DNA of 59,130 nt from a virus. A model generated the notes under the pieces. It saw only the letters and a program-made list of their open reading frames with translations, made no database searches and had not been told where the DNA came from. Of this stretch, positions 11,452-47,530 are shown piece by piece. Positions within the stretch are counted from its first letter, which is position 1. The number at the start of each line of letters is the position of its first letter. Position numbers and translations under genes: made by a program. Location: the IMG/VR virus record IMGVR_UViG_3300024581_000422, positions 1 to 59,130 of that record. One strand, given 5' to 3'.

Positions 11452-11453
11452 TT

Positions 11454-11745: not shown

Positions 11746-11776
11746 GGGGGAGTGTAATATGCTCCCCCTTTTTTTC
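11746..11776 (+). terminator. Rho-independent terminator
   Basis: GGGGGAG - tgtaatat(g) - CTCCCCC followed by T7. Confidence 0.8.
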
Positions 11777-11779
11777 CGA

Positions 11780-14362: not shown

Positions 14363-14366
14363 AGAT

Positions 14367-14612
14367 ATGGCTGTACTTATTGAAAGTAATAGAGGATATA
14401 GTCCATGCCAACACCTTGATGAACTTAATAGGATGTATAGGGTCTTAACAAAGACAGTCAAGGTGAAGCATGGCAGAGGTAGGAACATACGATACACGGA
14501 GACATTAAAGTATAAGAACAGCAGTGATATTGTAGCACGAGAGAACTTAATTTACTCAATTAAAATATATGAAGAGAGATGTTTGAATTCAGAGAATACC
14601 AAAAGAAAATAA
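14367..14612 (+). CDS. Hypothetical basic protein (81 aa)
   Basis: ORF track. Tight spacing. Confidence 0.5.
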   Translation: MAVLIESNRGYSPCQHLDELNRMYRVLTKTVKVKHGRGRNIRYTETLKYKNSSDIVARENLIYSIKIYEERCLNSENTKRK

Positions 14613-17451: not shown

Positions 17452-17646
17452 ATGAAAGGCAGGCTATCATCTATAGACAAGGAGAGACTTAACTATATAA
17501 ACTATCTAATGGATGACTTATATAATGATATGTCAGACCTATACGAGTCACTTGTAGATAGAGAGATGGAAGAGACCAAGGCTACTCTGTCTAATATGAT
17601 ACTTAAATTAAGAGACTTACAAGATTCAATTGAAGATGACATCTAA
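17452..17646 (+). CDS. Hypothetical acidic protein (64 aa)
   Basis: ORF track. Confidence 0.5.
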   Translation: MKGRLSSIDKERLNYINYLMDDLYNDMSDLYESLVDREMEETKATLSNMILKLRDLQDSIEDDI

Positions 17647-18037
17647 GCAGTGTACAAAATGCAATGAAGTCAAACCATTAGATGAGTTTCATTGGAAGGA
17701 TAAAAGAAGGGACAGCAGTCCTAACTCAAGAAGAAACTCGTGCAAGTCTTGTGTAAATATACAAAGGAATCTAAGGAGACGCAACATAACATCTTGGCTA
17801 AAACAATACAAGCGTAACTGTGAGTGTCAGAAGTGCGGGTATTCTAAGGAGACACATAAAGATTTTACTTGTAAGGCATTAGAGTTTCATCATCATAATA
17901 ATGACAAGAGTTTTGATGTAGGTGACTATCTAATGAAGGGGGTATCTATAGATAAAATTCAGACAGAGATTGACAAGTGCATTGTGCTGTGTTCACGATG
18001 CCACAAAGAAGTACACGAACATGAGATTCGAATCTAA
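17630..18037 (+). CDS. HNH endonuclease with Cys4 zinc fingers
   Basis: CTKCNEVKPLDEF, CKSC, CQKCG, LEFHHHNNDK, VLCSRCHKEVH. Confidence 0.75.
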   Translation: MKMTSKQCTKCNEVKPLDEFHWKDKRRDSSPNSRRNSCKSCVNIQRNLRRRNITSWLKQYKRNCECQKCGYSKETHKDFTCKALEFHHHNNDKSFDVGDYLMKGVSIDKIQTEIDKCIVLCSRCHKEVHEHEIRI

Positions 18038-18434: not shown

Positions 18435-18450
18435 TCTCTTTGAAGAGACT
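18433..18450. terminator. 18-bp perfect palindrome agtctctttgaagagact between the two convergent arms (candidate bidirectional terminator/boundary)
   Basis: Overlaps the + strand stop (18432..18434) and the - strand stop (18450..18452). No flanking T-tracts. Confidence 0.5.
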
Positions 18451-21400
18451 TAATCTTCCATCATATCTTCTAAGGTTGGCAGCTTAGGCAAATCATCAGA
18501 CATTTTAGGTAGCTCAGGTAACTCAGGTAGACCCAATGCCTCTCGTTCCTTTTTTGTTAGATTAAGTCCACTGCTCTTCTTTTTCTTAGGTTCCCCTTTA
18601 GGTTTTTCTTTAGTTTTTTCTTTTGTTGCATACCCCGGTCTGTATGACTTAGCAACACCCATTATCTTAAACACATCATCCATCTCCCCCTCGCCTGTAG
18701 CAATATTGAATATGCCTTCAGCAGGGTCCATAGGTGAAGCTGTGCCGATTTCAAGCAATATTTTAGTTCCCTCGTAGGCATCAACGTCTTTGAGTGCCTT
18801 AGCAATTTTTTGTGCGAAATCACTATATGGATTCTTCATGCTGTCTCTTGAAAAGTATTCTCCACGATACGCAGCAATACCACTCTCAAGCCCCGCACCT
18901 ACCAAAGGCAGCCTATATAAAAGTGTAAGTGGATTGCCCGAAGCTAATATCTGTTTAAGTGCGTATTCCCTGTCATCCTTATCTCCAAATAATAATGCCA
19001 TTGAATATGATGCTGTTGTATATAACACATTGGCGACAACTGCATTCAAAAGAAAGTTTTTGTAATCACTATATGTAGCTTTCCCATTAATAATCCTGCC
19101 TGCATATTTCATTGTGTTATTCAACAACAAGAATGATGCACTACCAAACATTGTGACACCTTTAACAAGAGGATTATTTGATTGCTGTAAGCCTATCTTG
19201 TTTACATTCTGCTGTGCCTGCTGTGTGCTATCAAATTGATTGAATCGTCTTAGTGCCTCAGCTTTTGACATACCATTCTTTATGTCCCTATTGAATCGTG
19301 CCTTGTATCCTAATACCCCATTTATATCTCCATATGATGTAAAGAAAGCTTTTGCTCTTGACAGTGCCCTTGCAACAGCTCCCCTTTTACCTTGTGCTTC
19401 TAATACAGGTCTGTATGTTCTTTGCCCTGATTCTATAGCAAGAAGGTCTCCTTTCATTCCTTTCCTATAACGCTCTGCAAATATGCCTGACATATCCATT
19501 GCCTCAGCGACATTCTTTTTTCTATTCGCAAGTACATCAGCATAGTCATACATGAATGTGAAAAAGTCAACTATAGGGGTGCTCTTTCCTTTTCTAAATT
19601 GATAGTCACCCAATGGCAACATAAATGATGTAGTCTGCTTTAATGCCTGTATGGGCTTGAATGCTAATACAATTCCTGAAAATGTATTCTGTGCCCATGT
19701 CAATAGCTTTCCACCTCTTTTTATTTCAGGGGTTGCATTTGGATTGATTCCATAATTTAACATCTGTTGGAATATATTCTTGTATCCTGACATATCTAAA
19801 AGCGTCTGTATATCAGGTGACTTATACACCTGATTCATTGTCTTTACACCCAATGCATATGCCTTGAATCGCTCCATATCTCTGAAGTGTTTCTCTAATG
19901 TCTGAGTAAATGAACGATTCATTACAACGTCACCTACCTTGGCTGTCCTCTCCTTTAGTGCACTCTGCCATTCTGCATTGAACACCTTAAAAAAGTCTCC
20001 TGAAAATAAGTCTTCGCTATTAGTTGCACTCACATCTGTCTGTGTAGGGAAGTAGTTTTCAATCTGACGCAGGCTAATATCATTTGCCTGCATGAATACA
20101 TTATTCACAGATTCAAAGTATGGATTGCTAAGGTAATCTACCGTACTCTCTATGATTGCTATATTATCCTCCCCAATAAACTCTTTTAATTGTAAGATTT
20201 TTGCATCGTCAAGACCTTGATTGTTTAGCTTCTCTCTCTGTGTGTCATTCAATGTAAGTGCATACAAAGCCATCGCTTGGTCTCTATTTAACTCTACACT
20301 GAATGGCTCTTTACTTGTGTCTTCCTGTACAGATATTATACCATCTAATGTAATCACATCATTGCCAAGAGAATACTTCCATTTATTCCACTCTTTATTG
20401 GCAAGCCTATTTGTTATGCCATCAAGAACCTTCTCCTGTGTAAAGTACCCAAGCAGGGCATTATTCTCCATGTCAAGCAATGAGTTATAAAAGAATTCGG
20501 TAAACAACCCATTTGTGTTGCGGTCTAATCGCTGCGTTATAAGGTCAAGGTTAAACATATTCTCCTTCATGAACATAGCCAATGCACCTGTCTTATACTT
20601 TAGGTTCTCTGTTACACGAGCCTTAAAGTCTTTTAATGTCTCTAAGAATCCATCTTTTATGAATGCCTGCATGATAGGCTTACGGTCTCTCTTTAGCTGA
20701 GTATCAGACTTACGTTGACCATCCTCATCATATAGCTCACTGAAGTCTTTACTTATCTGAGTTTTAAACTGCTCTTTAATAGACTCAGAGAGCTGTCGTC
20801 TCATCTTTCGTCTTGTATTAAAATTCTTAATAGATTCAGCCCTTGTATTCTTTAAGTCATCTAATAGCAGCTTCACCTGCTCGAGGTCCATGTTAACAAT
20901 GTCAGCATATGAATCAATTGCATCTCTCAAGTTAAGGATGTCTAATTCTTTTTTAGTAAGCTTCTGTCCACGCTCGTCTTTATCTAATGCAGTATTATAT
21001 TCATTTTCATCTATGCTGTTCATTAGGTTTATGATTCCATCAACATCACCATTCATAGCTAATTTTAGTACACGAGATACTGCATCAAGATATGACTTAC
21101 CTCTCACGTCTACACCACTTGCACTAAGCTTGCCTGACCTTGTCTTCTTTACCTTTACTTTCACGGTGTCCTTAATCTCATTGATTAATTTTTTCTTCAC
21201 CTGCTCTCTGCTATTATCCAACTCATCCAATACCTTTGTTAGTTGCTCAGTATAGTTTTGGTCATTGGTCTCATTAAGAATCTTATTGAGTCTATTAATT
21301 GTTGCAACCCTAAACTCTCTTACCTTTATAGGTGTATCCTTCGTCATCTCAGCAAAAGACTTACGTATCACACGTCTAATCTCCTGTTGGAAGTTTCTTA

Positions 21401-24400
21401 CGTCACGTCTCACCTTATCTTCAGCACGCACCTTCCTGTTAAATTCAAGTGTGCTCTGTCTTAGGCTCTCTGCCTGCTGTGCATCAACCATTGTATCAAT
21501 CTCGGCAAAGATTAAATTAGTTATGCCTTCTACATTTTCAGGAGTAGCCTGAGTAATTAGCTTGTTAATCTTGTTTACACTGCTCTTAGACACATTCTTT
21601 ATGCCTACAAGTTTCTGTCTGATTGCATTCTTTAACTCTGTCTGTGCAGCCTTTATATTGCGTTGACCTCTCTTTATGTCAGCTATACGCTTTCTGATGC
21701 CACCTATCTCCTTAGAAATCTTAGGACCTCTATTTATTTTTAGGTCTCTATCTATGGCATTCTGAAGTTCTAATTGAATTCTCTCTATCTGACTCTTGAA
21801 TAATGGATGTGCCTTTAGAATATCCTGAGCCTTCTGTCTTATTTCAATGAGTGACTTTCCTTGTCGAGCGAATCTCTGCAGCTTATCTTTTACATCATTG
21901 AAAAGTTTTAGTCCTTCTCTTGCACCTTCATTAATATTACCAAACTCATATGGCATCTTATTAAATAGGTCAATATCAATCTCCAATGCACTTTTTATTG
22001 TACTTGCATCGAATCCTCTATTTTGTAGTATCGCCTTGATTGCATCATTTGGATAGCCTAACTCTCTTCCTAATGACACTATAGACTCTGCAGATGCATT
22101 GTCTCCTGTCATCAACTGTAATGTGCTTGACAGTGCCGATACATCCTGACCTTTGAATAGCTCTTTGCCTGATAGCAGGTCTACGGTTACAGCCTGAAGA
22201 AATTCATCCAATGTGATATTTTCAAGCTGCTCTGCAGTATACTCTGATATACCAAAAAGTTTTTGTATATTCTTGTATAGGTCTACAAGCCACTGCTTGA
22301 AGTCTCTGCTTACAGATGCATTCACAAAAGATTCACCTTTGTCTCCTATGGCTGTTGCCAATGCTTCTTCTTTTATGTATGTGTCAATCTCTTCTTCTGT
22401 AGCACCTGCCTCACGCATTTTTGTTATAATACGTTTGTAGTCGCTGCTATTCTTTATCTGATTGATATATGTCTCATCCTGCGAGATAAGCTCCATCCCC
22501 TTGTTGTATAGTTCAGGAGATGCCTGCTTCGCTGTATTAATCCATATGTGTCCGAACTCGTGTATAGGTGTGTTGAAGTTTTCTACTCTCCCATTTAGGT
22601 ATAGCTTGCCTTCATATACCGCACCGTATACAGTTTGGTCTTTAGTTAATAGTTCTTTTACCCATAGATTTTTTGTAAGCTCATCAAACTCTTGTTGTGA
22701 TGTTATGACCTCTACTGTAGGGAACGCCTTCGTTAATCTCTCTAAAAATATTTCCCATGGAGTTGGATTCAGCTCAGATATTTGATACGCTGTAGACGAT
22801 GTGGTCATTGCAGATGTACCTGCGGCAGATATTGCCTCAGCTTTACTGTAGTTAACCATCTTTGCTAATGGTAGCTCAGCTTCTTTTAAAAGATTTTTTA
22901 TTTTATCATTGTTATTTAATTGCAGTGCCTCTTCTAATAGTGGCTTCATTATCTTCCTGTCTCTTGCATTTAGTTTAGCAAATGCATCAGATGCCAATAT
23001 CTCTTCAATAAGTTTCAGCTTATCTGCCTTTTTAACCTTATCAGATTTTGCTTCCTGTATTTTTTCAAACACTTCAGTCTCAGCCTTATTAGCATTGTAT
23101 TTTACTTTACCTGACCTCTTTTTTTCTAAGCCAACAGCTCGCTCTTGTAGCTGATTAGAATAGTAATCTGTAACCCTATAGAATGGTGCAGTATCTTCCA
23201 TCAAGGCGACAGCTCTTCCTCGAATATAAAATGGGTAATTTGGATGTATCTGCATTCCTTCAGCTTGCGCCTCTTCTTCTGAAATTTTTGCCGATGCTAT
23301 TATATCATTGATTCCCTTGTTATATTCTTTTTGTGTTATCTCCTTTTTCTTTAGTCTCTCATCGAGTTGTCTTTTTAACTCGCTTACCTTTACACCATCT
23401 TTGTTAGTAATCTCAACCACCATAGTGAGTGCACCCGTCTTCAAGTCTTTGGTAAAGCCTTCAGATGTCTCATCTATAAGTACGTCTCTTGCTATGCCAA
23501 GAGAAATCAACTCTTGAGACAGCTTGATGTCAGTCTTTACATCTAATGTCTCAGGCAATATAAGCTCCATGACTGCAGCCCTTGTCTTTACACCTTCATT
23601 CTCTTGTAATGCCTTGAAAAATGACATTATATCAGTAGCCCCATCCAAGTGTTTCTTAGCCTTCTTTACGTCTGTTAATTTAGACTCCTTAACTTTATCC
23701 TTGATTAGATTAAATATCTTATCCTTTTGATTGTCGGGAATTTTTTCATTCACCATCTCTGCTATAATAATATTAGACATGATGCCACCATTCCCCATGT
23801 TGTACACAACGGAATAGTCTGCATCCATTGCCCCTTTTATTATTTTTGTTGCTGCCACATCTTTTATCGATGCCCATGCAACCTTGCCAAATAGTCCCTC
23901 CATCAATGGGAAAAAGTTTCCTCCCATCTTTACGTATGGATTGGTATCAGGGTTGTGCGGTTTTGTGGGGTCTTTAAGTTCTACCTTTAGCTTGTCAGCC
24001 ATCAACAGGTTTATCTTTTTCCCCACTAACTCTTTTAGTTTAAACCTCTTTATCTTTTCTACAAGTGACAGGTTTTCTTCTACTGTTATAGGTGTAGGCT
24101 CAACAGTTGGCTCTTCTACTACAACTGTCTCTCCTGAACTTTCTTGTTTGTCTAACTCGCTAAATAGTTTCTTTGCCTCTTTTGTCTTCTTGTCTATTAC
24201 ATTGTCTTCTGTCTTACCTTCAGATAGTTGGAACTGTACTTCATCGCTGCCAAGACGTTCTTCTAAGTCAGCTTCTAAGCTTGCTACATCTTGCTTCAAT
24301 ATCTCAAGCTCGGACACTCTTGTCTTGTGTTTTTCTGCTACTCTCTCTTGGAATTTTGTTAGCTTCTTGCCTGCAATATTCTTGTCTGCTATTGCTGAGA

Positions 24401-27400
24401 GGATACCATCAAGCCTTGACTCTTCAATAGTATTGTCGTCAAACGCCTTTACATCAGCCTTGTTAGGTCTTGCAATAGGTGTCGGGACTACCTCAGTCTC
24501 AGTCTCAACCTCAGCCTCAGTCTCAACCTCAGTCTCAGTCTTAACCTGTATATTGTTTTCTGTTTTTACAGGAGACTCTTTAAAATTAGCAGCATCAACT
24601 GATGTACCTGTACCTATTATTATATCATATGTAGGTCTTTCAACAAGCTTTCCGTCTACTACTCTTTTTGGCTTTACAATTGTTTTTACAATCTTAACAC
24701 CTTCAGGGACTTGGTCGCTTTCTTCTATTCTATCTACATCTACTAATTCACCTTTTTCAATTCTTCTTCCAAGCTCCCCATCAAATATGTATCCATCTGC
24801 TTCAAGCTCTGCCTTCCGCTGCTGATACCAACGCATATCTTCTTGAGTTAAAGCCTCATTAGCTAATATGGCATTTTGCATAAAGTTCTTAAGCAATAAT
24901 GCCTTACTTTTTGAGTCTGTAGTATTAGCCCATTGTGCTTTTATGTTGTCAACTCTTTTCTGTAATTTATTTTTCTGAGTCTGTGTTGCAGCCTCTTGTG
25001 CTTTTGGAGTCCTAACCATTGTAACACCATCCTCCTGCATCTCAAATCCATTACGCTCGTATAGTTCCTGTAATCGATTTGCATCTACAGTGTTATCCTT
25101 TGGTACTACTTTCAGTGTAACCTTCTTCCCACCACTGTCAGCCTTCTGTGTAATCTTATTGATTGCAGCCTCAGCCTTTCCTTGACCTTTCTTTCCTTCC
25201 TCTGTTTCTATACTCTCTAATGTGACACCTGTCTCATCTTCAGTTAGTATAACCTTGGTGCCATCCATGTCAACTTCTACACCACCCTCCATTACGTCTT
25301 CAAGAGAAGTGGTCTCACCTAATCCTTCAGCAAAAGATTCGGTCACATCTGTCTCAACATCTACATCAGCAGTCGTCTTACCTTCTGCCTTTAACGCTTC
25401 TGTAATCTTTTGTTCTACTATGCCCTGCGTCTCAGCATCATTGTTAATAATTAAATTGGTTTTTAGTGCCTGCTCAGGAGTAAGCTTTTGCATCTTAGAC
25501 AGAAACTGTTTTTTGCTTAACTCCTTGCCATTGATAGCGTAGTATGGTGATGCATCATCCAATACACTTCTATATGATATGTCAAGCATTCCTTCAAGAT
25601 TAACCTGAGCCTCTTTGCTTGCAAGCTCTCCTGTGCTGACTGTCTCTGCTATCTCGTCATTTATGTTCTTTATCTTCTCACTAAACAGCTCTCTGCTATT
25701 TGTTGTAGATGAAAGTTTTTCTTTTGCGGCTAACAGCTGCATTACCCTTGTCTCTACTTCAGTAGAAGCATCTTCATTCCCACTGACCTCTAATAGGCTC
25801 TTTGCCTCTCTCCTGCGACCTACATTCTTTTGAATTTCTTGGTTTTGTTCAGAGGTAATCTTCCCTAACCTGTGCATCTCATTTGCCCACTCACTTATCC
25901 TGCTGTCGGTCTCTCCTACATTATTAAACTCAGATACATTAGAAAGTCTCTGTGCAAGACTAAGATTCTTCTTTCCTCGTATGTCACTATACATATTAAT
26001 GGCACCTGTTGTATACGATATAGGATTTGCAAATGGCATAAATAAGCCACCTATCACCTCAGATATTATCTCCTTTCTATTTGTCTCTTGACCTGACACC
26101 TTCTGCGCCAAGAACTCTCCACTTCCCTCGAATAATGGGTTTACAAGAGCCTGCTCTGCAGTTAATACACCAAGCTTTGTAGCTCTCGATGACAGTGGTT
26201 TCGCTCTAAATATTCTACCCGCCAACGATGTCTGTAATAATGATATTGCACCAATTGTCAGACCTCTCTTTAATCCTATCTGCTTTCCTTCTTCCCATAC
26301 CGCATCGTCATCAAGAGCCAATTCCATTTGGTCCGGGTCGAGCACATCATACCCTTTTTTTCTTGCCGCATCCATCACAGCATTGGTGTACTCAAGTGCT
26401 ACGATTGTAGTAGAAAATCCAAGCTGTGCCCCTCTACCTAAACCTACAACCCCTGCCGGCAATGCACCCGGTCCACCTGTTGCTGCAGCCCCATATGCTG
26501 CACCCATACCAAACCCCGTAGCAGCAAATGCAGGTATAATAATCGAACCGTATGGTAGCATCTGCGTGAGACTCTCTGCTGCCAAAGATATACCAACCTC
26601 AAATGGTTGGTCATAGAATGCATCTAACTCTTCTGCAAATGTCCTTCCTTTCTGATACCTATAAAAGCCTCTTCCCTCCTTTCCTGTTTGAGCTTCTGCC
26701 GCATACTTAGCTATAGCTTCAGCTGCCTCTTTTGCGGTACTGTTCTCGTCTATATCTTTTAATCCTAATGATATGGCAAGGATGATATATCCAATATTCC
26801 CATTAGCCAATCCCCTCTTATATGAATTTGACACAGCCTCTAAGTTTTCTACCCACTCATCCATTACAGCCTTGTCTGCTTTTTTATTAAACCACGTGTG
26901 TGCTATATCATATCTATTTGCAGCCTCTTGTCTTTTTATTTTTAGTATGTCATATTCTGTGTTGAATTTATCTACAAACTCAGCTTCTTGTTCTGTCTTA
27001 GGCTCATACAATGCAACCTCATCTGCAGTCAATCCAAGTGTATTGGTAGAAAGCTCATTCATTGCTTCCATGTATAGGTCCACCTCTTTTCTTTCATCTA
27101 TTGCTATAGCTCCATTTACAGCATACATATCCTGCAGGTATTTATCAAAGTCCTCTCGAACCCTTTGAAACTCATCTTGGTTTACAGACCCTCTTAGTAT
27201 AGCAGCTTCTTCCTTTAACTCTTTTAATACCTCATTTGCATCTGTACGCTTCTTTCCGTTGATATATAGGAATCCCATCTTCTCTTTCATCGCCTGCTGT
27301 TCTTCTAAGCCCCCTTCCTCGCTGTAGTCCTGTTGGAATTCATACATTGGTGAGTTTTCAATGGCAACAATCTTGTCCATTAAATCCTCATATTTATTAT

Positions 27401-28829
27401 ACATATCCATGTAGGCATTGTAGTCTAATCCTCTCTTCTTATAGAACCTATCAGCCTCTACATCTACTGCAGATATATCTTTCCATGAGCCATTAACTAA
27501 ATCTTTTGCCTTCTCTTCAGAGTCTACAGAGATAACCTCTCCTCTTACTACTGCCTCAAGATATGCCTCGTCTGCATCTAATAGCATCCATTCAGATGGG
27601 TCTGTGCTATAGTCTGTTGCAGCATTTTTAGGGAATAGTGTGGGGTATACAATAAAGTTCCCATTAGGCATCTCTCTATATGTAAGCTCTAATGTGCCTA
27701 CAGATAAGTCATCTAATTGCGTATAGTTCTTACGCATAGTCTGTAACCTTACCGCATTGGTAATATCATCAGTAACCTCAGGTTCAACTCCTGCAGGTAC
27801 TGCATTGTTTATTATAAAAGACTTTAGCTTTGCTGTCTCATCACGAGTCTTTATTTTTTTTGTTGTGCCTGCTGCCAATGGCTTTAGTTCTATGACTTCT
27901 GTCGCACCATTGTCTGTTGATATGACTTCTATAGCATTTAATGTAAATGACTTTGGTATAATCGCACTAAATAATCCAACATCCCTAAATACAAATCCAT
28001 ACTTACCATACTTCTCTGTAAGCAAGTCTATCGCATCACTTGAATTGTAGTCTATGACATCTTCTGTGATTGATGCTATGTCATTTTGAAATTCTTCTGA
28101 TAGTATGAGCTTTTCTTTCTGCTGTATTTTCTCTAAAGTTTTTTTGTCAGCCTCTCTTTGCTCTTCTCCTTTTCTTTGTATAAGTTCGCCTTCTTCTTTT
28201 AATGTGACACCTTCGGGTCTTATAATGTTATCAGCACCCGGCACATCGATATATTCATCTTGTAAATATTCAGGCGATACCTCACCTCTCTGCCCATAAA
28301 ACATTGATTCAAATGACCCTTGTGCAGGTGGTGCAGGCGGTTTTGGCGGACCCGGAGGTGCAGGTTTACTTGCAAAATCAGGAGGCATTATATTGGCAAC
28401 ACCCGGTGTATCGACATATTCATTTGGTTGGTCTTCTTCTTTCTCTCTTCTCTTCTTCTCTTCTTCTATTTTACTTTTCAAAAGCGGAGCTGCTTGTGAT
28501 ATATAATCCCAATCTACTTTTTTATCTAAAGTGTTGTCAGATAATACTGTACCTTCTACGTTCTCAGTCTCTGACGAAGCCAAAGAACCATCTTCCGAAG
28601 GTGATACCATACCTTCCTCTTTTTTTTTTACATCAGGTATAGCTGTATCTGCCCAAGCTGCTTTGAATTTATCAACAGTAGAAGTTTTAAATAAACCATT
28701 AGATTTACCTATTTCAAAAAGCTTCTCTTGTTGTGTTGAATTAGCAGCCTTCCATTTTTCAAAAGAAGTTTTATTCGTTATTATTCCCTCGTCAAGGTAA
28801 AGATTATATAATTTTTCTAACTTATCCAT
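18450..28829 (-). CDS. Giant 3459-aa virion/ejection-type multidomain (polyvalent-like) protein
   Basis: Uninterrupted ORF at the end of the structural operon. HEFGH zincin motif (nt 22548..22562). Gly/Ala-rich hydrophobic segment (PAFAATGFGMGAAYGAAATGGPGALPAGVVGLG). GNAT-like patch (..KKGQGKAEAAI...LQELYERNGFEM). Long coiled-coil stretches and C-terminal hydrophobic segments. Confidence 0.85.
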   Translation of the reverse strand: MDKLEKLYNLYLDEGIITNKTSFEKWKAANSTQQEKLFEIGKSNGLFKTSTVDKFKAAWADTAIPDVKKKEEGMVSPSEDGSLASSETENVEGTVLSDNTLDKKVDWDYISQAAPLLKSKIEEEKKRREKEEDQPNEYVDTPGVANIMPPDFASKPAPPGPPKPPAPPAQGSFESMFYGQRGEVSPEYLQDEYIDVPGADNIIRPEGVTLKEEGELIQRKGEEQREADKKTLEKIQQKEKLILSEEFQNDIASITEDVIDYNSSDAIDLLTEKYGKYGFVFRDVGLFSAIIPKSFTLNAIEVISTDNGATEVIELKPLAAGTTKKIKTRDETAKLKSFIINNAVPAGVEPEVTDDITNAVRLQTMRKNYTQLDDLSVGTLELTYREMPNGNFIVYPTLFPKNAATDYSTDPSEWMLLDADEAYLEAVVRGEVISVDSEEKAKDLVNGSWKDISAVDVEADRFYKKRGLDYNAYMDMYNKYEDLMDKIVAIENSPMYEFQQDYSEEGGLEEQQAMKEKMGFLYINGKKRTDANEVLKELKEEAAILRGSVNQDEFQRVREDFDKYLQDMYAVNGAIAIDERKEVDLYMEAMNELSTNTLGLTADEVALYEPKTEQEAEFVDKFNTEYDILKIKRQEAANRYDIAHTWFNKKADKAVMDEWVENLEAVSNSYKRGLANGNIGYIILAISLGLKDIDENSTAKEAAEAIAKYAAEAQTGKEGRGFYRYQKGRTFAEELDAFYDQPFEVGISLAAESLTQMLPYGSIIIPAFAATGFGMGAAYGAAATGGPGALPAGVVGLGRGAQLGFSTTIVALEYTNAVMDAARKKGYDVLDPDQMELALDDDAVWEEGKQIGLKRGLTIGAISLLQTSLAGRIFRAKPLSSRATKLGVLTAEQALVNPLFEGSGEFLAQKVSGQETNRKEIISEVIGGLFMPFANPISYTTGAINMYSDIRGKKNLSLAQRLSNVSEFNNVGETDSRISEWANEMHRLGKITSEQNQEIQKNVGRRREAKSLLEVSGNEDASTEVETRVMQLLAAKEKLSSTTNSRELFSEKIKNINDEIAETVSTGELASKEAQVNLEGMLDISYRSVLDDASPYYAINGKELSKKQFLSKMQKLTPEQALKTNLIINNDAETQGIVEQKITEALKAEGKTTADVDVETDVTESFAEGLGETTSLEDVMEGGVEVDMDGTKVILTEDETGVTLESIETEEGKKGQGKAEAAINKITQKADSGGKKVTLKVVPKDNTVDANRLQELYERNGFEMQEDGVTMVRTPKAQEAATQTQKNKLQKRVDNIKAQWANTTDSKSKALLLKNFMQNAILANEALTQEDMRWYQQRKAELEADGYIFDGELGRRIEKGELVDVDRIEESDQVPEGVKIVKTIVKPKRVVDGKLVERPTYDIIIGTGTSVDAANFKESPVKTENNIQVKTETEVETEAEVETETEVVPTPIARPNKADVKAFDDNTIEESRLDGILSAIADKNIAGKKLTKFQERVAEKHKTRVSELEILKQDVASLEADLEERLGSDEVQFQLSEGKTEDNVIDKKTKEAKKLFSELDKQESSGETVVVEEPTVEPTPITVEENLSLVEKIKRFKLKELVGKKINLLMADKLKVELKDPTKPHNPDTNPYVKMGGNFFPLMEGLFGKVAWASIKDVAATKIIKGAMDADYSVVYNMGNGGIMSNIIIAEMVNEKIPDNQKDKIFNLIKDKVKESKLTDVKKAKKHLDGATDIMSFFKALQENEGVKTRAAVMELILPETLDVKTDIKLSQELISLGIARDVLIDETSEGFTKDLKTGALTMVVEITNKDGVKVSELKRQLDERLKKKEITQKEYNKGINDIIASAKISEEEAQAEGMQIHPNYPFYIRGRAVALMEDTAPFYRVTDYYSNQLQERAVGLEKKRSGKVKYNANKAETEVFEKIQEAKSDKVKKADKLKLIEEILASDAFAKLNARDRKIMKPLLEEALQLNNNDKIKNLLKEAELPLAKMVNYSKAEAISAAGTSAMTTSSTAYQISELNPTPWEIFLERLTKAFPTVEVITSQQEFDELTKNLWVKELLTKDQTVYGAVYEGKLYLNGRVENFNTPIHEFGHIWINTAKQASPELYNKGMELISQDETYINQIKNSSDYKRIITKMREAGATEEEIDTYIKEEALATAIGDKGESFVNASVSRDFKQWLVDLYKNIQKLFGISEYTAEQLENITLDEFLQAVTVDLLSGKELFKGQDVSALSSTLQLMTGDNASAESIVSLGRELGYPNDAIKAILQNRGFDASTIKSALEIDIDLFNKMPYEFGNINEGAREGLKLFNDVKDKLQRFARQGKSLIEIRQKAQDILKAHPLFKSQIERIQLELQNAIDRDLKINRGPKISKEIGGIRKRIADIKRGQRNIKAAQTELKNAIRQKLVGIKNVSKSSVNKINKLITQATPENVEGITNLIFAEIDTMVDAQQAESLRQSTLEFNRKVRAEDKVRRDVRNFQQEIRRVIRKSFAEMTKDTPIKVREFRVATINRLNKILNETNDQNYTEQLTKVLDELDNSREQVKKKLINEIKDTVKVKVKKTRSGKLSASGVDVRGKSYLDAVSRVLKLAMNGDVDGIINLMNSIDENEYNTALDKDERGQKLTKKELDILNLRDAIDSYADIVNMDLEQVKLLLDDLKNTRAESIKNFNTRRKMRRQLSESIKEQFKTQISKDFSELYDEDGQRKSDTQLKRDRKPIMQAFIKDGFLETLKDFKARVTENLKYKTGALAMFMKENMFNLDLITQRLDRNTNGLFTEFFYNSLLDMENNALLGYFTQEKVLDGITNRLANKEWNKWKYSLGNDVITLDGIISVQEDTSKEPFSVELNRDQAMALYALTLNDTQREKLNNQGLDDAKILQLKEFIGEDNIAIIESTVDYLSNPYFESVNNVFMQANDISLRQIENYFPTQTDVSATNSEDLFSGDFFKVFNAEWQSALKERTAKVGDVVMNRSFTQTLEKHFRDMERFKAYALGVKTMNQVYKSPDIQTLLDMSGYKNIFQQMLNYGINPNATPEIKRGGKLLTWAQNTFSGIVLAFKPIQALKQTTSFMLPLGDYQFRKGKSTPIVDFFTFMYDYADVLANRKKNVAEAMDMSGIFAERYRKGMKGDLLAIESGQRTYRPVLEAQGKRGAVARALSRAKAFFTSYGDINGVLGYKARFNRDIKNGMSKAEALRRFNQFDSTQQAQQNVNKIGLQQSNNPLVKGVTMFGSASFLLLNNTMKYAGRIINGKATYSDYKNFLLNAVVANVLYTTASYSMALLFGDKDDREYALKQILASGNPLTLLYRLPLVGAGLESGIAAYRGEYFSRDSMKNPYSDFAQKIAKALKDVDAYEGTKILLEIGTASPMDPAEGIFNIATGEGEMDDVFKIMGVAKSYRPGYATKEKTKEKPKGEPKKKKSSGLNLTKKEREALGLPELPELPKMSDDLPKLPTLEDMMED

Positions 28830-28847: not shown

Positions 28848-30665
28848 TTATTCTTCAGTTTCTTCTTCATCAAGTATAGCATCACCGTTTGTATTCTTTA
28901 GCTGTCGTTGACCTTCTATGAGCAATGGAATCCTGCTGTCAGGTACATTTGCTAATCCCTTTCCTATTAATAAATCTATAAGAGATTGAGCGTCTTGGTC
29001 AAGGGATAACTTTATATCTGCTTCACCTTCAACTGAGCTTGTCAATGTTACTTCCTCACTGATTCCCCCACTTGTCTCTGCAGTATAATTTTCAAGACCT
29101 GCAATATTTGCAATCATAGGATTTAATTTTTTAACTACTTCTTTTTTCGATAACATATTTCCATCTGTACCAACAAATGCAGATGTGTCTATATTATTTC
29201 TCATCAATCTTTCTAATGTCTCCAACATAGGCTCATACTCATCTTCAGGAATAGAAGCACCTGACCCTATTACTCTACGTTCAATATTTTGATTGATACC
29301 TGCCCCTTGAGGTATAATACCTCCGGCAGCTACTAAATCGACTATATTATCTATCTGTCTGCCTTCACCTAAGATAAAGTTTCCTTGAGATGTTAAGAAT
29401 GATTCAATGCTTTGAACGTCATTTAATTTTAATGCTCTTCTTACACCACCTTGTGTCATTATTAATTGACCTTTGTCACGGACAATATCAAGACCCGGAT
29501 TCATAGCCTCTAATGCATCTATAGCCTCTAATATTTCTTCTTCATTACCATAGACTAACTTAGCCATGTTTGTTAATGCATTCTTCTTTTGTGTTTTATT
29601 AAGACCTTTACCCGAAGTTGGAGGCTGTGGTGCATATGGCTTATTTACTACATTTTGAATATCAATCTTTTTGTCTATCTGCTCATCTATCTGATTGCTT
29701 AAGAAGTCTCTAACAGTCTGCTCTTGTTCATCTGTAAATACAGGTACGCCATTAGCATCTTGAGTCCTATCCAAAAATATTAATGTGCCCGTCTTGTCAT
29801 TCTTGTATTCAGTCTCGTTATATGTGAAATCAAAGAATTCACCATTTGCAGTCTGTAGTTTCCCTGTGGTAAGCATATCTGCAACATGGTCTTTGTTTGT
29901 CATCATAGCCTCTATTGTGTTTTCTTTCCATGTGGAAAACCCCGGAGCTTCAGTCTTGTCATCTATCTGCGTTACACTACTTAAATTTCCTGCACGCATA
30001 GCCTGATTCAGCTCTTCTATTACATACTCTCCCAAGTAGTCTACTTTCTCTTTTACATTTGCATCTGCATCATACCTGTCATAATTTCTTTTTATCTTGG
30101 TCAACATCTCTGCTGCAGTAGTCTGCTGATTCATGTCTATATTCCCATTTGCATCTCTATTGGCAATGCTTATCACACCATTGGTAGGATTTATAAATGT
30201 CCCTGCATTACGCAGGTTTGCCATACCTTCTACGTGTTGCATATCAAACACTTCACGCCATGCAGACTCGTCATTCTGCCACCTGTCCATCTTTTCTGTA
30301 TATGCCTCTTGGTATGCCTTAGCCATATCAAATGTTAGCTTCGTGCCATCTGTATTGTTCTGACGGTTACGTGTGTAGTCACCTAAATTCAACTGACCTG
30401 ACTTTAGCAGGTTGTCCTGCATACGTCTATATTCAGTCATGTTAGTCACGTATTCATTAATAAAATTATTACCATGGTCATAGTCACCTGTAGGCGCATT
30501 AGAAAGCTCGATACCTATCTGCCTTGACCTTTCATCTATCTCAGCTTTTTTATCAAGACGTACCTTCGCCTCTTCTTTGAGCATATCAGATACACTCTTC
30601 CCGACAGCATTCCAATCTATCCTGTCCTTTTCATTACGCTCGACATATTTATAGTAAGTAGCCAT
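28848..30665 (-). CDS. Putative internal virion protein (605 aa)
   Basis: ORF track. Position between a TM/coiled-coil protein and the giant protein parallels a T7 gp14-15-16-like order. Confidence 0.5.
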   Translation of the reverse strand: MATYYKYVERNEKDRIDWNAVGKSVSDMLKEEAKVRLDKKAEIDERSRQIGIELSNAPTGDYDHGNNFINEYVTNMTEYRRMQDNLLKSGQLNLGDYTRNRQNNTDGTKLTFDMAKAYQEAYTEKMDRWQNDESAWREVFDMQHVEGMANLRNAGTFINPTNGVISIANRDANGNIDMNQQTTAAEMLTKIKRNYDRYDADANVKEKVDYLGEYVIEELNQAMRAGNLSSVTQIDDKTEAPGFSTWKENTIEAMMTNKDHVADMLTTGKLQTANGEFFDFTYNETEYKNDKTGTLIFLDRTQDANGVPVFTDEQEQTVRDFLSNQIDEQIDKKIDIQNVVNKPYAPQPPTSGKGLNKTQKKNALTNMAKLVYGNEEEILEAIDALEAMNPGLDIVRDKGQLIMTQGGVRRALKLNDVQSIESFLTSQGNFILGEGRQIDNIVDLVAAGGIIPQGAGINQNIERRVIGSGASIPEDEYEPMLETLERLMRNNIDTSAFVGTDGNMLSKKEVVKKLNPMIANIAGLENYTAETSGGISEEVTLTSSVEGEADIKLSLDQDAQSLIDLLIGKGLANVPDSRIPLLIEGQRQLKNTNGDAILDEEETEE

Positions 30666-30678: not shown

Positions 30679-31752
30679 TTATCTTCCTCCAAACATTTCT
30701 TCTAATTGCTTATATCGTAAATATTCTTTATAAGCTTCTGTATCTAATCCGGCATTTACTCCACCCATATTAAAAATATAAGGAGAACTTGAAAAGTTTT
30801 TACCTATTCTATTTGAACCTCTATAATCTTGATACCCTTCACTTGCGTAAAGTTTTTTAAATGCTGCAGGATTTGCTTTTTCAAGCTGCTTAAAATCTCT
30901 TTTACTCATATCACTTATAGAGGTTGGAAGAACTCCCGAAGGAACCGTAGTAGTCATAGGTGTCTCAGGTACAGTACTCATTACAATTTGTGAAGACGTT
31001 GGAGGCAGAGGACCTGTTTGTGGGCTAAGCCCTCCTATCCCTGTGCCAAGAGATATTTGTGGGTATGATGATTCCAAAGTTGCATCTATAGGGTTAATAT
31101 TTGTTAAAGTTGTATCACCAAATATAGCTGAATTAACTGCATCTTGTCCCAAGGATGCAATCCCTGCTCTTCTTTGACCTGCCGTACCTTTACCATATAG
31201 TGGTGCCATTGATACTGCCTGACCTACAGTACTTATAGCACCTTGTATACCTTGTCCGATTGCTTGTCTTTTTGCATTCTCAGCTTCTGCCGCTGCTCGC
31301 TGAGCACCTTCTGCCTCCTGTAGGCTTATGTCGGCTTGTAGCCCTGCCAATCGAGCGTCTTCTCGTGCAATCAACTCTTCAATCCTATTCATCTCCTGCT
31401 CCTGTTGTGCCATAATCTGCTGCTGTCCTAATAGGTCCTGTTGGTATACCTGACCTGCAGTAGAGGCAACGCCTCGTGTAGACCCCTCTCTTGCTGCCCC
31501 CATCAGATTTGCTGCCTGCACCATAGCCCTGTCACGAGCGATGTCGTATATCTCTTTGTTTATACCAAGGTCTGCCATGTAGTTCACATCAAGACGCTTA
31601 CGTGCATCTTCTAATGCTCTATCAGCTGCTGCCTGTGCTCTTTTTTGTTTTTTACTTTGTGCCGCAGCCTGACCGAATGATGCCGCTGTACCTGCAGCAC
31701 CCATTACTAACCCTGTTATTCCTAATCCCAATGCTAATCCTATTCCTGCCAT
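30679..31752 (-). CDS. Putative internal virion protein with N-terminal Gly-zipper TM and a Q/A-rich coiled coil (357 aa)
   Basis: MAGIGLALGLGITGLVMGAAGTAASFG..., then AQ-rich helices. Confidence 0.5.
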   Translation of the reverse strand: MAGIGLALGLGITGLVMGAAGTAASFGQAAAQSKKQKRAQAAADRALEDARKRLDVNYMADLGINKEIYDIARDRAMVQAANLMGAAREGSTRGVASTAGQVYQQDLLGQQQIMAQQEQEMNRIEELIAREDARLAGLQADISLQEAEGAQRAAAEAENAKRQAIGQGIQGAISTVGQAVSMAPLYGKGTAGQRRAGIASLGQDAVNSAIFGDTTLTNINPIDATLESSYPQISLGTGIGGLSPQTGPLPPTSSQIVMSTVPETPMTTTVPSGVLPTSISDMSKRDFKQLEKANPAAFKKLYASEGYQDYRGSNRIGKNFSSSPYIFNMGGVNAGLDTEAYKEYLRYKQLEEMFGGR

Positions 31753-32307: not shown

Positions 32308-33147
32308 TTATGGGAAAGATTTCATTATCTCAGATTCAACAGAAAACATTTCACTCTGATTAATCGCCTTCGTAGGGTCAAGTGTCAACACAAACTTACA
32401 GTAGTGTCCTAATAGACCATGTGACTCTGCTATAGGATTCTTAATATACAAGAAATATGCGTCCTGCAGTGGTATAGGATTAACAGCAGGAGGAACAAAT
32501 GGATTCCCCTGTTGGTCTACAGATGAGTTAATAACCAACTGATTGATACCATTGCGTTTGTCTACGTTTTTCTGAATAATCTGACCTGCAAATATAGGTG
32601 TCTCATATGGTGGCACTGCATAGTATAGATAGTCTCCAACGCTTACAATGCTTCCTATATCAACAGATAGTGCAAAGTCAATCTCGTATGCTGTAGCTAT
32701 GCCTCCAACTGCTGTACTACGAGCGATGCCATTAAGTGAGCGCAACTCAAATTCACTTTCATCTACACTTGCACCTGTCGGTCCATTGTTACGAATGAAT
32801 GCAAACCACGCATCTTCTTTTTTCTCGAACCAATCGTCATCAATCAGTCCTGTGGTCTGTATGTCTGTTGTTAGGATAGCATCCCAAGAGTCGTCACCCT
32901 CCAAGTTTAATGTCTTGAACTGCTTGGTCTCTAATGGGCTCTGATTAAATATACTTGTTATCTGAGACTCATAGGTGGTCCCATAGAACGTGTTGTAGTT
33001 ATTGTTGGTGTTATGCCTATAAAGGTTGCCACCCTTAAACGTATAAAAAAATTGATTCATCCCTATCATCCAATCAGGGAAAAAAGAATAGAATGATGGG
33101 AACCCCTGTGAGGTATTGCTGTATGTTAATGTATAATTCTGACTCAT
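32308..33147 (-). CDS. Putative tail/structural protein (279 aa)
   Basis: ORF track, in the structural operon. Confidence 0.6.
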   Translation of the reverse strand: MSQNYTLTYSNTSQGFPSFYSFFPDWMIGMNQFFYTFKGGNLYRHNTNNNYNTFYGTTYESQITSIFNQSPLETKQFKTLNLEGDDSWDAILTTDIQTTGLIDDDWFEKKEDAWFAFIRNNGPTGASVDESEFELRSLNGIARSTAVGGIATAYEIDFALSVDIGSIVSVGDYLYYAVPPYETPIFAGQIIQKNVDKRNGINQLVINSSVDQQGNPFVPPAVNPIPLQDAYFLYIKNPIAESHGLLGHYCKFVLTLDPTKAINQSEMFSVESEIMKSFP

Positions 33148-34128: not shown

Positions 34129-34362
34129 TTATTCTTCAATAGTTGTCCACTCAGGACCGCTTACAATAACCAACATCTCTTCTTTTGTATAAGGCGTTAG
34201 ACCTTGCGGGGCTATACTCTCCTTAAACATCATTATACCCTTGGTGTCATCCAAAGACATCCGTATGTATATGTGTTGGCTACCAAGGCTTTCAATCATA
34301 AGATTCTTATATCCATCGATGTCATCCTTTAGTACAATATAATATCTCAAATCATCTATCAT
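34129..34362 (-). CDS. Hypothetical protein (77 aa)
   Basis: ORF track. ATGA-type overlap with the 1761-aa gene. Confidence 0.55.
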   Translation of the reverse strand: MIDDLRYYIVLKDDIDGYKNLMIESLGSQHIYIRMSLDDTKGIMMFKESIAPQGLTPYTKEEMLVIVSGPEWTTIEE

Positions 34363-45094: not shown

Positions 45095-47530
45095 TTATCG
45101 AGGAGAGAACTCAGCCAAATCAAATCCATCTAAACTATCTTCATTAGACTCAAAGTTTAATGGAGGTAGATTATTCTTTCTTTGATTGATTAACTTGCTC
45201 TGCTCTGTATTCTGCTGACTTATTCTCTTAGCCTTTGCGTCTTCACGCTCAGTCTCTCTCGCCTGTAGTGATGTCTCTCTAAGATTATGAAGCTGCATAT
45301 TATAGTCAAACTCTTCTTTCATTAGCAATGACTTGAGCTTAGCTTCATTGTTCATCTTCTCAATTTCAAATGCAGCCTTAGCCTGCTCGATTTGCATCTT
45401 GCTCTGAGACTCTAACTGTATCTTTTGTGCAGCCACCTGTGCAGCCATCTGTTGTGATTGCATATTGATTTGACTTTGCATCGCCTGCTGCTGCATAGCC
45501 ATCTGCTCTTCTCTGTCCTGCTTCTGCTTACGTTTTAATTTAAGCAACTGATTGGCAAGCTTGATATTCTTAAGCTCTCTGATGTCTATCGCATCCTCAA
45601 GATTAATATCTCCCTTAGATAAAGCCATCTGAACATTCTGCTCAAGCTGAGCTTTCTGCTCTTCGTCAGGTGACACCTCTATAAATATTCCAAAGTCATA
45701 TAAATATAAGTCACTTATCTCGTTAAGGATAGACACATTATACTTTCCAATCTTATTTGCAAAGTCATCTTTGAAGTCAGCATACTCAAGTATGTCTGCA
45801 ATACGATATGTTAATGCCTCTGCAACAGACCTATACACATATAGGCTACCATCAAGTACGTGTCGGGTCGCTACATTTGAATTTAATGCAGCAAGCTTCT
45901 GTAGCCCTACCAATGAGTTAGGGTCAATATCGCTTCCGTCTCTTGCCTCGTTTAGCCCTGTAACAGTTCTAATCATGTTCAGATAATGATTATAGTTCCC
46001 TATAAGCATCTGTGCCTTGGAGGCTCCTGAATTAGATGTAAGCTGTTGGATAGGAATCTTTCCTTGGTTATACTCGCCATCCTGTGTATATGAACGCCCG
46101 ATAACACTACCCGTTTGGAAGTATAGTCTCAATGCATCTTCAGGATTATATGCTGCTCCTGTACCAAGGTCTACCTCATTTAATCCATCGGCATCTATAT
46201 ACACACCGTCAGGTACAACCCTTGAGATTACCTGCTGTAGTTTTAGATGCGTCATCTGTATCAAGTCGGCAAATGGTATCATACGTCTTACCAAAGACTC
46301 TAATCTTCCCTTATACATTCGAGGTGCAACAGCAACATAGTTTGGCAGTGCGTGTTGAGATGTTGACTTGGGTCTTACCATATTCTTTGCAAGCTCCCAC
46401 TTCAATATAATATTGGTACCCATGACCATAACGCCATCGTACCACACATCAATAGTCTTCTCAAACTTTTCAAAGTTTCCCTCTTCCATTATCTCTTCAG
46501 GTGGATTAAATTGGTCATCTTTCTCGATAACCTTGTTTCCGCCCGTTGCTGTAATTTTTTTCTTGTAGACCATCTTTTGTGTGGTCTTGTAGTTGAAGTA
46601 TAACAATGTCGCAGTGTCTCTATAAAACATATCATTCTCATAGAACTGTGCCACATTATAGTAGTCGTACCAAGACTGACTATACTTGCTTATCTCTTCT
46701 AAGTCTTCTTTCGTAAGTGATGGGTCTATCTTCATTAGCTCCGTTATAGGAAGCGTCTTTACTTCACCCCAATAGAAACAGTCTTTAAAGTGTGGGTCTT
46801 CGGTGTAACTATACACCACATTTGCAGGGTCAACATAAGATATTTTTACACCTGAGCCTTTTAAAAACTCGTGCTTTAATACTCCAAGCCCCAATGTAGT
46901 TATGTCGTAATCTACTCTCTTGCGTAAGTCTACATAGTGATTCTCATCAAGTATCGTATTGATAGCCTCTTCTTCAGCTATCTCAATAGCAGGCTTATAG
47001 TTGAGTTGCATATACAATGCCATCTCCTCATCATCTTGAGGTAAAGAATCTTCAGGCATCATGAAAGGGTCATACCCTGACATCTCTTTTACTATAGATA
47101 GCTGCTCTTTTGCTGCCATCTGTCCTTGTATCATATCCTGATACTTACTTCTCTTTGCCTGAGACATTGCGTCCTGTGCATAGGCATTAACCTTAAACAG
47201 CCTGTCAGACATTCCGTTTACAACAATGTCTACAAATTTAGGTATGATAGGTACAGGTGTCCAATCTAAGTTAAGATAAGATAGGTCGCCATCAATGGCT
47301 AACTCATTTTTGTATTTTGCAACAGACTGCTCGCCTCTTGAATACAACCTTAGCTTATGGAACTCTCTCCATTGGTCATAGAACCTACAGCTATTACCAT
47401 CTTTTTTGAACCACTCATATTGAATAGCTTGACCTATCATCAGACCATATTCGTCTGTTGCCTTCTCGGCATCAGAAACAAACTGACTTGGAAACCCTAC
47501 TGATGAAATATTAATCTTTACGTCCTTCAT
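45095..47530 (-). CDS. Portal protein (811 aa) with a Q-rich coiled-coil C-terminus
   Basis: Size and position immediately downstream of, and overlapping, the large terminase. Confidence 0.7.
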   Translation of the reverse strand: MKDVKINISSVGFPSQFVSDAEKATDEYGLMIGQAIQYEWFKKDGNSCRFYDQWREFHKLRLYSRGEQSVAKYKNELAIDGDLSYLNLDWTPVPIIPKFVDIVVNGMSDRLFKVNAYAQDAMSQAKRSKYQDMIQGQMAAKEQLSIVKEMSGYDPFMMPEDSLPQDDEEMALYMQLNYKPAIEIAEEEAINTILDENHYVDLRKRVDYDITTLGLGVLKHEFLKGSGVKISYVDPANVVYSYTEDPHFKDCFYWGEVKTLPITELMKIDPSLTKEDLEEISKYSQSWYDYYNVAQFYENDMFYRDTATLLYFNYKTTQKMVYKKKITATGGNKVIEKDDQFNPPEEIMEEGNFEKFEKTIDVWYDGVMVMGTNIILKWELAKNMVRPKSTSQHALPNYVAVAPRMYKGRLESLVRRMIPFADLIQMTHLKLQQVISRVVPDGVYIDADGLNEVDLGTGAAYNPEDALRLYFQTGSVIGRSYTQDGEYNQGKIPIQQLTSNSGASKAQMLIGNYNHYLNMIRTVTGLNEARDGSDIDPNSLVGLQKLAALNSNVATRHVLDGSLYVYRSVAEALTYRIADILEYADFKDDFANKIGKYNVSILNEISDLYLYDFGIFIEVSPDEEQKAQLEQNVQMALSKGDINLEDAIDIRELKNIKLANQLLKLKRKQKQDREEQMAMQQQAMQSQINMQSQQMAAQVAAQKIQLESQSKMQIEQAKAAFEIEKMNNEAKLKSLLMKEEFDYNMQLHNLRETSLQARETEREDAKAKRISQQNTEQSKLINQRKNNLPPLNFESNEDSLDGFDLAEFSPR

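Follow-up and report, generated by a model that had tools for sequence, protein, structure and literature searches.

The IMG/VR virus record IMGVR_UViG_3300024581_000422, analysed here over positions 1 to 59,130 (hereafter the window), devotes 17.6% of its 59,130 nt to one gene, the product of which is 3459 amino acids (aa) long, and the question raised by this locus is what so large a protein might be for. A first-pass annotation, made from the letters and their open reading frames (ORFs), described the product as an ejection protein that has accreted effector domains. This description is favoured by the position of the gene, by a complete lack of cysteine (Cys), by the annotation of relatives and by the presence of unrelated enzyme-like modules, while packaging in the virion is something that we infer from where the gene lies and from how distant relatives are annotated. 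On balance we consider it rather probable that the giant protein is packed into the capsid, that it is ejected into the host either before the DNA or along with it, and that it is built on the plan of gp50, the virion RNA polymerase (vRNAP) of phage N4. The first-pass description thus appears to be largely right, and can be sharpened to that of a polyvalent, N4 gp50-like ejection protein without a polymerase. The architectural parallel with the N4 vRNAP, the total lack of Cys and a conserved central domain, here called M, had all escaped the first-pass annotation.

In N4, gp50 begins with a lipid-binding N-terminal domain, followed by a low-complexity linker of ~100 aa and the RNA polymerase (residues 1007-2101); C-terminal to these are C1 (2124-2375), which contains a conserved HExxH motif, and C2 (2376-3500), which is helical and without structural relatives (PMC13434306). 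It is ejected after gp52 and gp51 in the manner of beads on a string, a process that requires unfolding (PMC13434306).

Gene position, composition and conserved plan

All genes from ~18.4 kb to 59 kb are encoded on the minus strand. The giant ORF closes the virion operon in a single uninterrupted 10.4-kb frame with an ATG start, after ORFs of 357 and 605 aa, exactly as had been described. In order, the virion module consists of TerL, portal, several PHROG 'virion structural' proteins, a 1761-aa protein, a protein with a crAss muzzle C-terminal domain, a tail-fibre-like protein, the 357-aa ORF, the 605-aa ORF and the giant ORF. Packaging and ejection of proteins encoded at the same genomic position have been shown experimentally in crassviruses and in N4 (for N4, PMC13434306).

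The giant protein contains no Cys and only 10 histidines (His), against ~40 Cys and ~56 His expected from the other ORFs in the window, where these residues make up 1.17% and 1.61% of the total; given that background, the probability of zero Cys in the giant protein alone is 2e-18. The 605-aa and 357-aa proteins upstream are also devoid of Cys. Since the adjoining tail proteins are Cys-rich, with 25 Cys in 1761 aa (34359-39644) and 10 in 312 aa (33180-34118), the last three genes of the operon form a separate compositional class. N4 gp50, gp51 and gp52 have no Cys each, Schitoviridae vRNAPs possess zero or one Cys and a single HExxH each (8/8), and nearly all members of the giant protein's own family have between zero and two Cys. 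A Cys-free run of three proteins at the end of the virion operon may be a general marker of ejection proteins, one that is cheap and needs sequence only.

An exhaustive HMMER search with aa 1150-2349 as query returned at least 1147 representatives at 50% identity (E<=1e-3), 686 of them with E<=1e-10, and family members are mostly 2000-4800 aa long. IMG/VR contributes 188 relatives, many on contigs of ~60 kb. A syntenic protein of 3859 aa was identified by tblastn in the 60.8-kb 'Podoviridae sp. ctfjg026' (MW202828.1), and two of the modules were also found in gp74 of Tenacibaculum phage Gundel_1 (Pachyviridae), a 2482-aa 'structural protein'; the source phage is related to phages of Bacteroidota. 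Near-identical DNA was not found among GenBank phages. The same 'structural protein' annotation is attached to gp21 of the cultured phage elemoA, which is 3694 aa long, Cys-free and syntenic and carries an HEIFH site, and Gundel_1 gp74 itself resembles 'structural proteins' of the Cellulophaga phages phi38:1, phi13:2 and others. The elemo phages are not covered by Nilsson et al. 2020.

Conservation mapping produced a common plan comprising an N block, a variable cassette, the M domain, the HExxH (Z) domain, a charge-rich stretch and a C block. The first-pass annotation had called for a comparison of domain order in related phages, and this shows that block order is conserved and that the cassette ranges from ~190 to ~1600 aa. 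In the giant protein the plan is laid out as follows.

18450..28829, minus strand: giant ORF, 10,380 nt, ATG start, 3459 aa
27543..28829, minus strand: poorly conserved N-terminal region, aa 1-429 (conservation maps)
25620..27542, minus strand: conserved N block, aa 430-1070 (conservation maps, alignment)
26205..26591, minus strand: Gly/Ala-rich, moderately hydrophobic segments, aa 747-875 (Kyte-Doolittle maxima 1.2-1.4)
24960..25313, minus strand: mini-GNAT of AcrVA5 type, aa ~1173-1290, inside the variable cassette (aa ~1071-1584)
24078..24959, minus strand: charge-rich linker of low conservation (near zero), aa 1291-1584, with TE/VE repeats at ~aa 1370-1400
23115..24077, minus strand: M domain, aa 1585-1905, conserved across the family
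21750..22757, minus strand: Z domain, zincin-like, aa 2025-2360, the most conserved part of the family
22548..22562, minus strand: HEFGH, aa 2090-2094, with H2090, E2091 and H2094 invariant
22365..22367, minus strand: codon of E2155, in EEALATAIGDKGE, invariant, candidate third zinc ligand
20313..21749, minus strand: charge-rich region, presumably helical from its composition, aa 2361-2839, moderately conserved with a variable spot at ~aa 2400-2500
18630..20312, minus strand: conserved C block, aa 2840-3400 (alignment), the best-conserved part of roughly 2500-3400

Upstream of the N block, the duplicated EY[VI]D[TV]PG motif of the first-pass annotation was recovered by regular expression at aa 137 and aa 192, flanking a Pro-rich stretch (~aa 150-170). 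The Gly/Ala-rich hydrophobic stretch that it also reported is present at aa 747-875, where glycines G761, G776, G780 and G800 are invariant. Its 'membrane-insertion segments' are accurate as to the existence of hydrophobic stretches and overstated as to their strength, which is only moderate: the highest 19-residue Kyte-Doolittle values are 1.41 (aa 3263) and 1.40 (aa 763), and none reach 1.5. The former lies in the C block, in which moderately hydrophobic segments occupy aa 3218-3321. Its 'kilobases of coiled coil' is likewise a weak statement, the observation behind it being a composition rich in charged residues. In N4, the N-terminal domain of gp50 enters nanodiscs and has putative membrane-spanning helices at 224-278 (PMC13434306). 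Kyte-Doolittle values at N4 residues 118-347 are 1.29-1.47, compared with 1.2-1.4 in the Gly/Ala-rich segments of the giant protein, and this likeness makes a membrane-interacting role plausible, such that aa 747-875 may be regarded as candidate membrane-interacting helices. Profiles of the N block and of the C block had no match among PDB sequences, and Pfam matches in aa 2361-2839 were weak and of coiled-coil type only.

The HExxH domain

The HEFGH site is the sole HExxH in the giant protein and lies where the first-pass annotation had placed it. Given 10 His, such a motif arose by chance in 56 of 20,000 shuffles (0.28%), and an HE[FMY]GH site is kept in nearly all of ~150 distant relatives. 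Among 24 sequences that are 28-54% identical, G2069, H2090, E2091, H2094, G2111, E2155 and G2165 are invariant, and H2090, E2091, H2094 and E2155 are invariant in the full-length alignment also. An AlphaFold model of the domain, built from the alignment of these 24 (pLDDT 84, pTM 0.80), was assigned by DSSP strands at model residues 11-13, 37-43 and 46-49, helices at 16-28 and 57-74, the latter bearing HExxH, and a further helix at 116-145 that contains E2155. The resulting order, beta-alpha-beta-beta-alpha(HExxH)-...-alpha(Glu), agrees with the zincin-like 'MPTase' core of polyvalent proteins, which combines a three-stranded sheet with an N-terminal helix, a helix bearing HExxH and one bearing Glu (Iyer et al. 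2017, PMC5512222).

Database searches with this domain were less decisive. Foldseek comparison of the model with PDB recovered neither a zincin nor any other neighbour (best E 0.55), and the Z profile had no match among PDB sequences. Compared with BFVD, the model matched Gundel_1 gp74 (3.8e-9), the crAss-like cr108_1 (1.7e-3) and Elemovirus (2.2e-3), followed by weaker matches to proteins annotated with LPD, PolyVal-ART or IrrE-like domains. When the 24 members were compared singly with Pfam, three matched SprT-like (best E 0.017) and one Peptidase_M78, all below threshold; SprT-like, a minimal zincin, was the sole family matched by at least three members. A protein homologue search with a 310-aa zincin-domain query gave eight fragments.

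The N4 HExxH region has been joined to the zincins by HHpred (Iyer et al. 2017, PMC5512222), and a profile comparison of the Z domain with C1, represented by an alignment of 11 Schitoviridae, gave a moderate match (hhalign probability 53-54%, P 1.3e-4, over 54-160 columns). In the 160-column alignment HEFGH is placed on HELVH and E2155 on the Glu that is invariant in the N4 'NEFMAW' motif, and in full-length against full-length alignments (3459 x 3500) the best local match was again the HExxH region. Hence, homology to N4 gp50 is moderately supported, on sequence profiles, for one domain. A locus search with N4 C1 found close relatives only, and a 525-aa query from N4 C2 returned five fragments in the protein homologue search and was not useful. 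Taken as a whole, the zincin assignment made in the first-pass annotation draws support from the invariant H-E-x-x-H and Glu, from the topology of the model and from the moderate match to N4 C1, and lacks it from Foldseek, which found no PDB zincin, and from Pfam, in which no zincin exceeded threshold; on this evidence, a zincin-like metal site is likely.

Under a different explanation the protein would still be ejected, and its HExxH domain would be a metal-binding or structural module required for encapsidation or intramolecular regulation, with no self-processing. The want of a solved zincin by Foldseek and of a Pfam zincin above threshold is consistent with this, as is the precedent of N4, the vRNAP of which is packaged unprocessed and needs its HExxH-bearing region for encapsidation (PMC5512222); furthermore, the C-terminal domain of N4 gp50 autoinhibits the polymerase, and HExxH also occurs in enzymes that are not proteases (PMC13434306). 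Against it, the general base E2091 and the distal E2155 are invariant at ~30% identity, as an active enzyme predicts, the order of secondary structures is that of a zincin core, and the sub-threshold Pfam matches, SprT-like and Peptidase_M78, are to zincins. We regard a non-peptidase domain as possible and somewhat unlikely.

The variable cassette, the M domain and alternative roles

The patch that the first-pass annotation called GNAT-like (KKGQGKAEAAI from aa 1213, LQELYERNGFEM from aa 1253) was confirmed as GNAT by profile. A 14-sequence alignment of aa 1150-1290 and relatives matched the PDB chain 6iuf_A (E 3.6e-9) over residues 3-87 of its 96 residues, and further matches followed to 1yx0, 1u6m, 1z4e, 2bei, 1tiq and other GNATs. 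The acetyl-CoA pyrophosphate-binding loop of GNAT enzymes has the form Q/R-x-x-G-x-G/A and comes after strand beta4; aa 1213-1219 of the giant protein read K-K-G-Q-G-K-A, the consensus for the family being RGQGxA ... LYE..GF, and the second Gly of the loop (G1217) is invariant. By homology, then, the cassette contains a genuine mini-GNAT. That entry, 6IUF, is the anti-CRISPR protein AcrVA5, which acts as an acetyltransferase on Cas12a and other proteins (PMC11021501).

The mini-GNAT is a mobile module that the family can do without: 5 of 81 ORFs possess it (80 ORFs from IMG/VR contigs picked by their zincin domain, together with Gundel_1 gp74), a count to be read in the knowledge that 'Two of the five are duplicate pairs'. 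Its position varies among relatives, where it is sometimes in tandem (aa 827-964 and 1004-1129 in P0114; aa 960-1091 and 1102-1215 in P0145), and it is also found, at 53-69% identity, in proteins of an 'HEVFH' sister group. In relatives, modules occupy the interval that separates the N block from the M domain (from Z where M was undetected) and spots after Z, and include DUF3293 (43 bits), LPD23 (46.9, 46.4 and 36.2 bits) and DUF6782 (29.4 bits), as well as a weak, sub-threshold ART-PolyVal match in one relative (19 bits). The DUF6782 'putative metallopeptidase' modules carry HE[VLM]QH sites, and hhalign of the Z domain with DUF6782-like modules gave 12%. The giant protein itself matches none of the curated PolyVal, LPD or MPTase Pfam models; it is because relatives carry LPD23, DUF6782 and the weak ART-PolyVal at the same cassette sites that the family is tied to the polyvalent-protein class. 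With a GNAT, an HExxH domain and an M domain in one ORF of 3459 aa, the giant protein is itself multi-domain in the sense used for polyvalent proteins, of which GNAT is a recognised accessory domain (PMC5512222).

Most cassette sequence in relatives had no match. The 3859-aa ctfjg026 homologue has two HEFGH modules, at aa 1615 and aa 2500, the extra copy lying in its variable cassette and having no Pfam match. A motif, 'FRAVHD.FGH...G...GEENAW', is common to the cassettes of two relatives (P0069, aa ~1790-1950; L071, aa ~1870-2060); it too lacks a Pfam match and may represent another unannotated accessory domain.

Invariant residues of the M domain, which follows the cassette, include M1610-A-D1612, G1636-G1637, W1652-A-S and H1862-x-N-Y, and a divergent version is discernible by eye in more distant relatives. 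Its AlphaFold model is confident (pLDDT 92.2, pTM 0.85); it had no neighbour in PDB by Foldseek (best E 0.88), and the domain had no match to Pfam or to PDB sequences.

These elements can be assembled into a mechanism, in which contact with membranes, all of the catalytic activities and all of the targets are inferred. The N-terminal region would supply Gly/Ala-rich, lipid-interacting helices, to be followed by low-complexity linkers, a central payload, the HExxH domain and a sizeable block at the C-terminus; the payload, a T7-like RNA polymerase in N4, would here be a swappable cassette with the mini-GNAT and then the M domain. The three Cys-free proteins of 357, 605 and 3459 aa would leave the capsid through the tail, largely unfolded, like beads on a string, the two small proteins and the N block helping to build a conduit across the envelope and the remaining domains of the giant protein refolding in the cytoplasm. 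There the GNAT module might acetylate proteins of the host, plausibly those used in defence, in the way that AcrVA5 acetylates Cas12a, and the HExxH domain might cleave the polyprotein into its modules or serve in packaging or regulation, as does its N4 counterpart.

Several results count against an ejected protein of N4 gp50 type and should be weighed together. Neither Pfam nor PHROG provided a family above threshold for the whole giant protein or for its 500-aa windows, and a phmmer search of PDB sequences with the entire protein gave a weak AcrVA5 match only. No classical transmembrane helix is present, the hydrophobic segments all being below classical thresholds. Neither the N block compared with the N4 N-terminal domain (4%) nor the C block compared with C2 (3%) was significant in hhalign; any shared 'chassis' beyond the HExxH domain is therefore an analogy in length, order, composition and gene context. 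Some of the 'structural protein' annotations of relatives are themselves similarity-based. Lastly, there is the Foldseek result for the Z domain given above, and the proteolytic role of that domain is uncertain because the N4 vRNAP is packaged unprocessed.

One alternative is that the protein stays with the virion as an external or tail-internal structural component, for instance a plug, a tail-length protein or a scaffold resembling a fibre. Such a role would suit a gene placed directly after tail and muzzle-like genes, relatives that are annotated only as 'structural protein', and long charge-rich stretches that are probably helical. Yet a complete lack of Cys is unlike the adjoining Cys-rich tail proteins and like known ejection proteins, the protein contains enzyme-like modules (the GNAT, and an HExxH domain in which residues of catalytic type are invariant), and a hypervariable cassette with accessory modules in relatives (LPD23, DUF6782) is typical of injected polyvalent proteins. 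We consider a tail role improbable.

Polymerases of known type were sought and rejected. A crAss-type two-barrel polymerase was discarded because no DxDxD or DFDxD occurs in the giant protein, where crAss001 gp50 has DFDVD; among window ORFs of more than 150 aa, the only D[FYWLIVM]DxD is a DWDDD in the primase/helicase ORF. An N4-type polymerase was discarded because no Pfam polymerase matched and full-length hhalign aligned only the HExxH region. That the M domain or another block is a polymerase diverged past recognition, which the vRNAP-like gene position (N4, crAss001), the absence of an RNA polymerase elsewhere among the window ORFs scanned, a confident M fold that lacks known relatives and bears invariant Asp and His, and the crAss vRNAP itself, most of which reportedly occupies new fold space (Drobysheva et al. 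2021), might encourage, is very improbable, given the missing DxDxD and Pfam polymerase families, no match among PDB sequences to the N4 mini-vRNAP chains (assuming that these are in that set), an hhalign value of 0.1% for the M block against full-length N4 vRNAP, and an M domain of only ~320 aa without a polymerase-like neighbour in Foldseek.

Genomic setting and comparison with known systems

The principal genes of the virion module other than the giant gene are listed below.

47527..49755, minus strand: TerL
45095..47530, minus strand: portal
32308..33147, minus strand: 279-aa protein, Pfam crAss muzzle C-terminal domain (PF25729, 72 bits)
30679..31752, minus strand: 357-aa protein, phrog_13764 (virion structural protein), no Cys and no His, candidate ejection protein
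28848..30665, minus strand: 605-aa protein, phrog_35506 (function unknown), Cys-free, candidate ejection protein in the position of N4 gp51 (644 aa)

The PF25729 match suggests, from sequence, that the tail of this phage, the genome of which is only ~59 kb, is distantly crassvirus-like. The N-terminus of the 357-aa protein is hydrophobic and glycine-zipper-like (MAGIGLALGLGITGLVMGAAG; Kyte-Doolittle 1.82). On the plus strand, the genes at 1-18.4 kb include a primase/helicase (11951-14362), a helicase and a RecE-like exonuclease, and neither a DNA polymerase nor an RNA polymerase was found among the larger window ORFs scanned. Also on this strand are a 362-aa protein (6815-7903) with a match to the gamma-glutamyl cyclotransferase family and, immediately ahead of the point where this strand and the giant gene converge, a 135-aa ORF (17630-18037) with 11 Cys and 8 His. 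The next plus-strand ORF ends at 18434, 15 nt from the stop codon of the giant gene at 18450. Homologues of GroEL (57250-58884, minus strand; phrog_5725, E 4e-130) and GroES (50011-50574, minus strand; phrog_13932) are encoded by the phage and could help in folding or loading giant virion proteins. A 217-aa protein adjoining the GroEL homologue (56586-57239, minus strand) matches PHROG 3704 'ferredoxin' (E 2e-66) and is an apparent auxiliary metabolic gene.

A broader interpretation can be offered tentatively, and we would not call it probable: that the N-M-Z-C blocks are a general protein-injection vehicle sharing ancestry with the N4 vRNAP, for which RNA polymerase is one payload among many, and through which podophages of Bacteroidota, as the DNA enters, deliver counter-defence modules that can be exchanged for one another, a pre-made AcrVA5-like acetyltransferase among them, with M as a new enzyme or translocation module. 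If the ejection account is correct, the N4 'giant ejected protein' plan would not be tied to a polymerase and would instead be a widespread delivery platform, with at least 1147 clusters at 50% identity, mostly in uncultured phages; virions would come with anti-CRISPR-type enzymes already packaged, which would hence act before any phage gene expression. Regardless, a family that has neither a Pfam nor a PHROG model, and to which these phages give ~17% of their coding capacity, is now named, its cassette site is a place to mine for new counter-defence domains, and attention is drawn to a conserved domain of 320 aa that is modelled with confidence and has no known fold.

Of known proteins, AcrVA5 (92 aa, from a Moraxella bovoculi prophage) is the nearest to the mini-GNAT, the two sharing a truncated GNAT core, an R/K-G-Q-G-x-A loop and an LY..GF motif in an alignment of nearly the whole chain. 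AcrVA5 is the product of a free-standing gene, whereas the mini-GNAT is one module of a 3459-aa protein.

The polyvalent proteins (PMC5512222) resemble the giant protein in being giant, multidomain products of late or virion operons, with a zincin-like HExxH hub and a history of domain accretion and shuffling. The text of that study makes no mention of Cellulophaga, Flavobacterium or crAss phages, and the conserved 'chassis' of ~2000 aa (N, M and C blocks) that distinguishes the present family is not described there.

With the cargo and RNAP-associated giants of crassviruses (crAss001 gp45-gp50; phi14:2 gp66) the giant protein shares a position after muzzle and tail genes and the concept of virion cargo that is partially unfolded at ejection. 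No block of the giant protein matched crAss001 gp45-gp50 significantly. The RNAP-associated cargo protein gp47 of crAss001 (8120-15145; 2341 aa, 1 Cys) has a single HEAFH at aa 2157, preceded by 'G..VTL........T.Y', a context that resembles the Z domain and the HE[VIA]FH sister group (elemoA gp21, P0081, P0085) at a level that is not statistically significant. The end of the virion operon converges on replication genes alike for the giant gene, for N4 gp52-gp51-gp50 and for the crAss001 cargo and vRNAP genes.

The closest parallel is N4. There, the virion operon ends with gp52 (150 aa), gp51 (644 aa) and gp50 (3500 aa), which converge on replication genes, and the ORFs of 357, 605 and 3459 aa are arranged in the same order, the 605-aa and 357-aa proteins having no detectable sequence similarity to gp51 and gp52. 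N4 gp50 and the giant protein agree in length (3500 and 3459 aa), in having no Cys, in the low-complexity linkers between their domains, and in a single HExxH domain at about residues 2100-2350 that is followed by ~1100 further residues. They differ in what occupies the centre, a T7-like RNA polymerase in N4 and the mini-GNAT and M domain here, and in their hosts, which are Proteobacteria for N4 and Bacteroidota for relatives of the giant protein.

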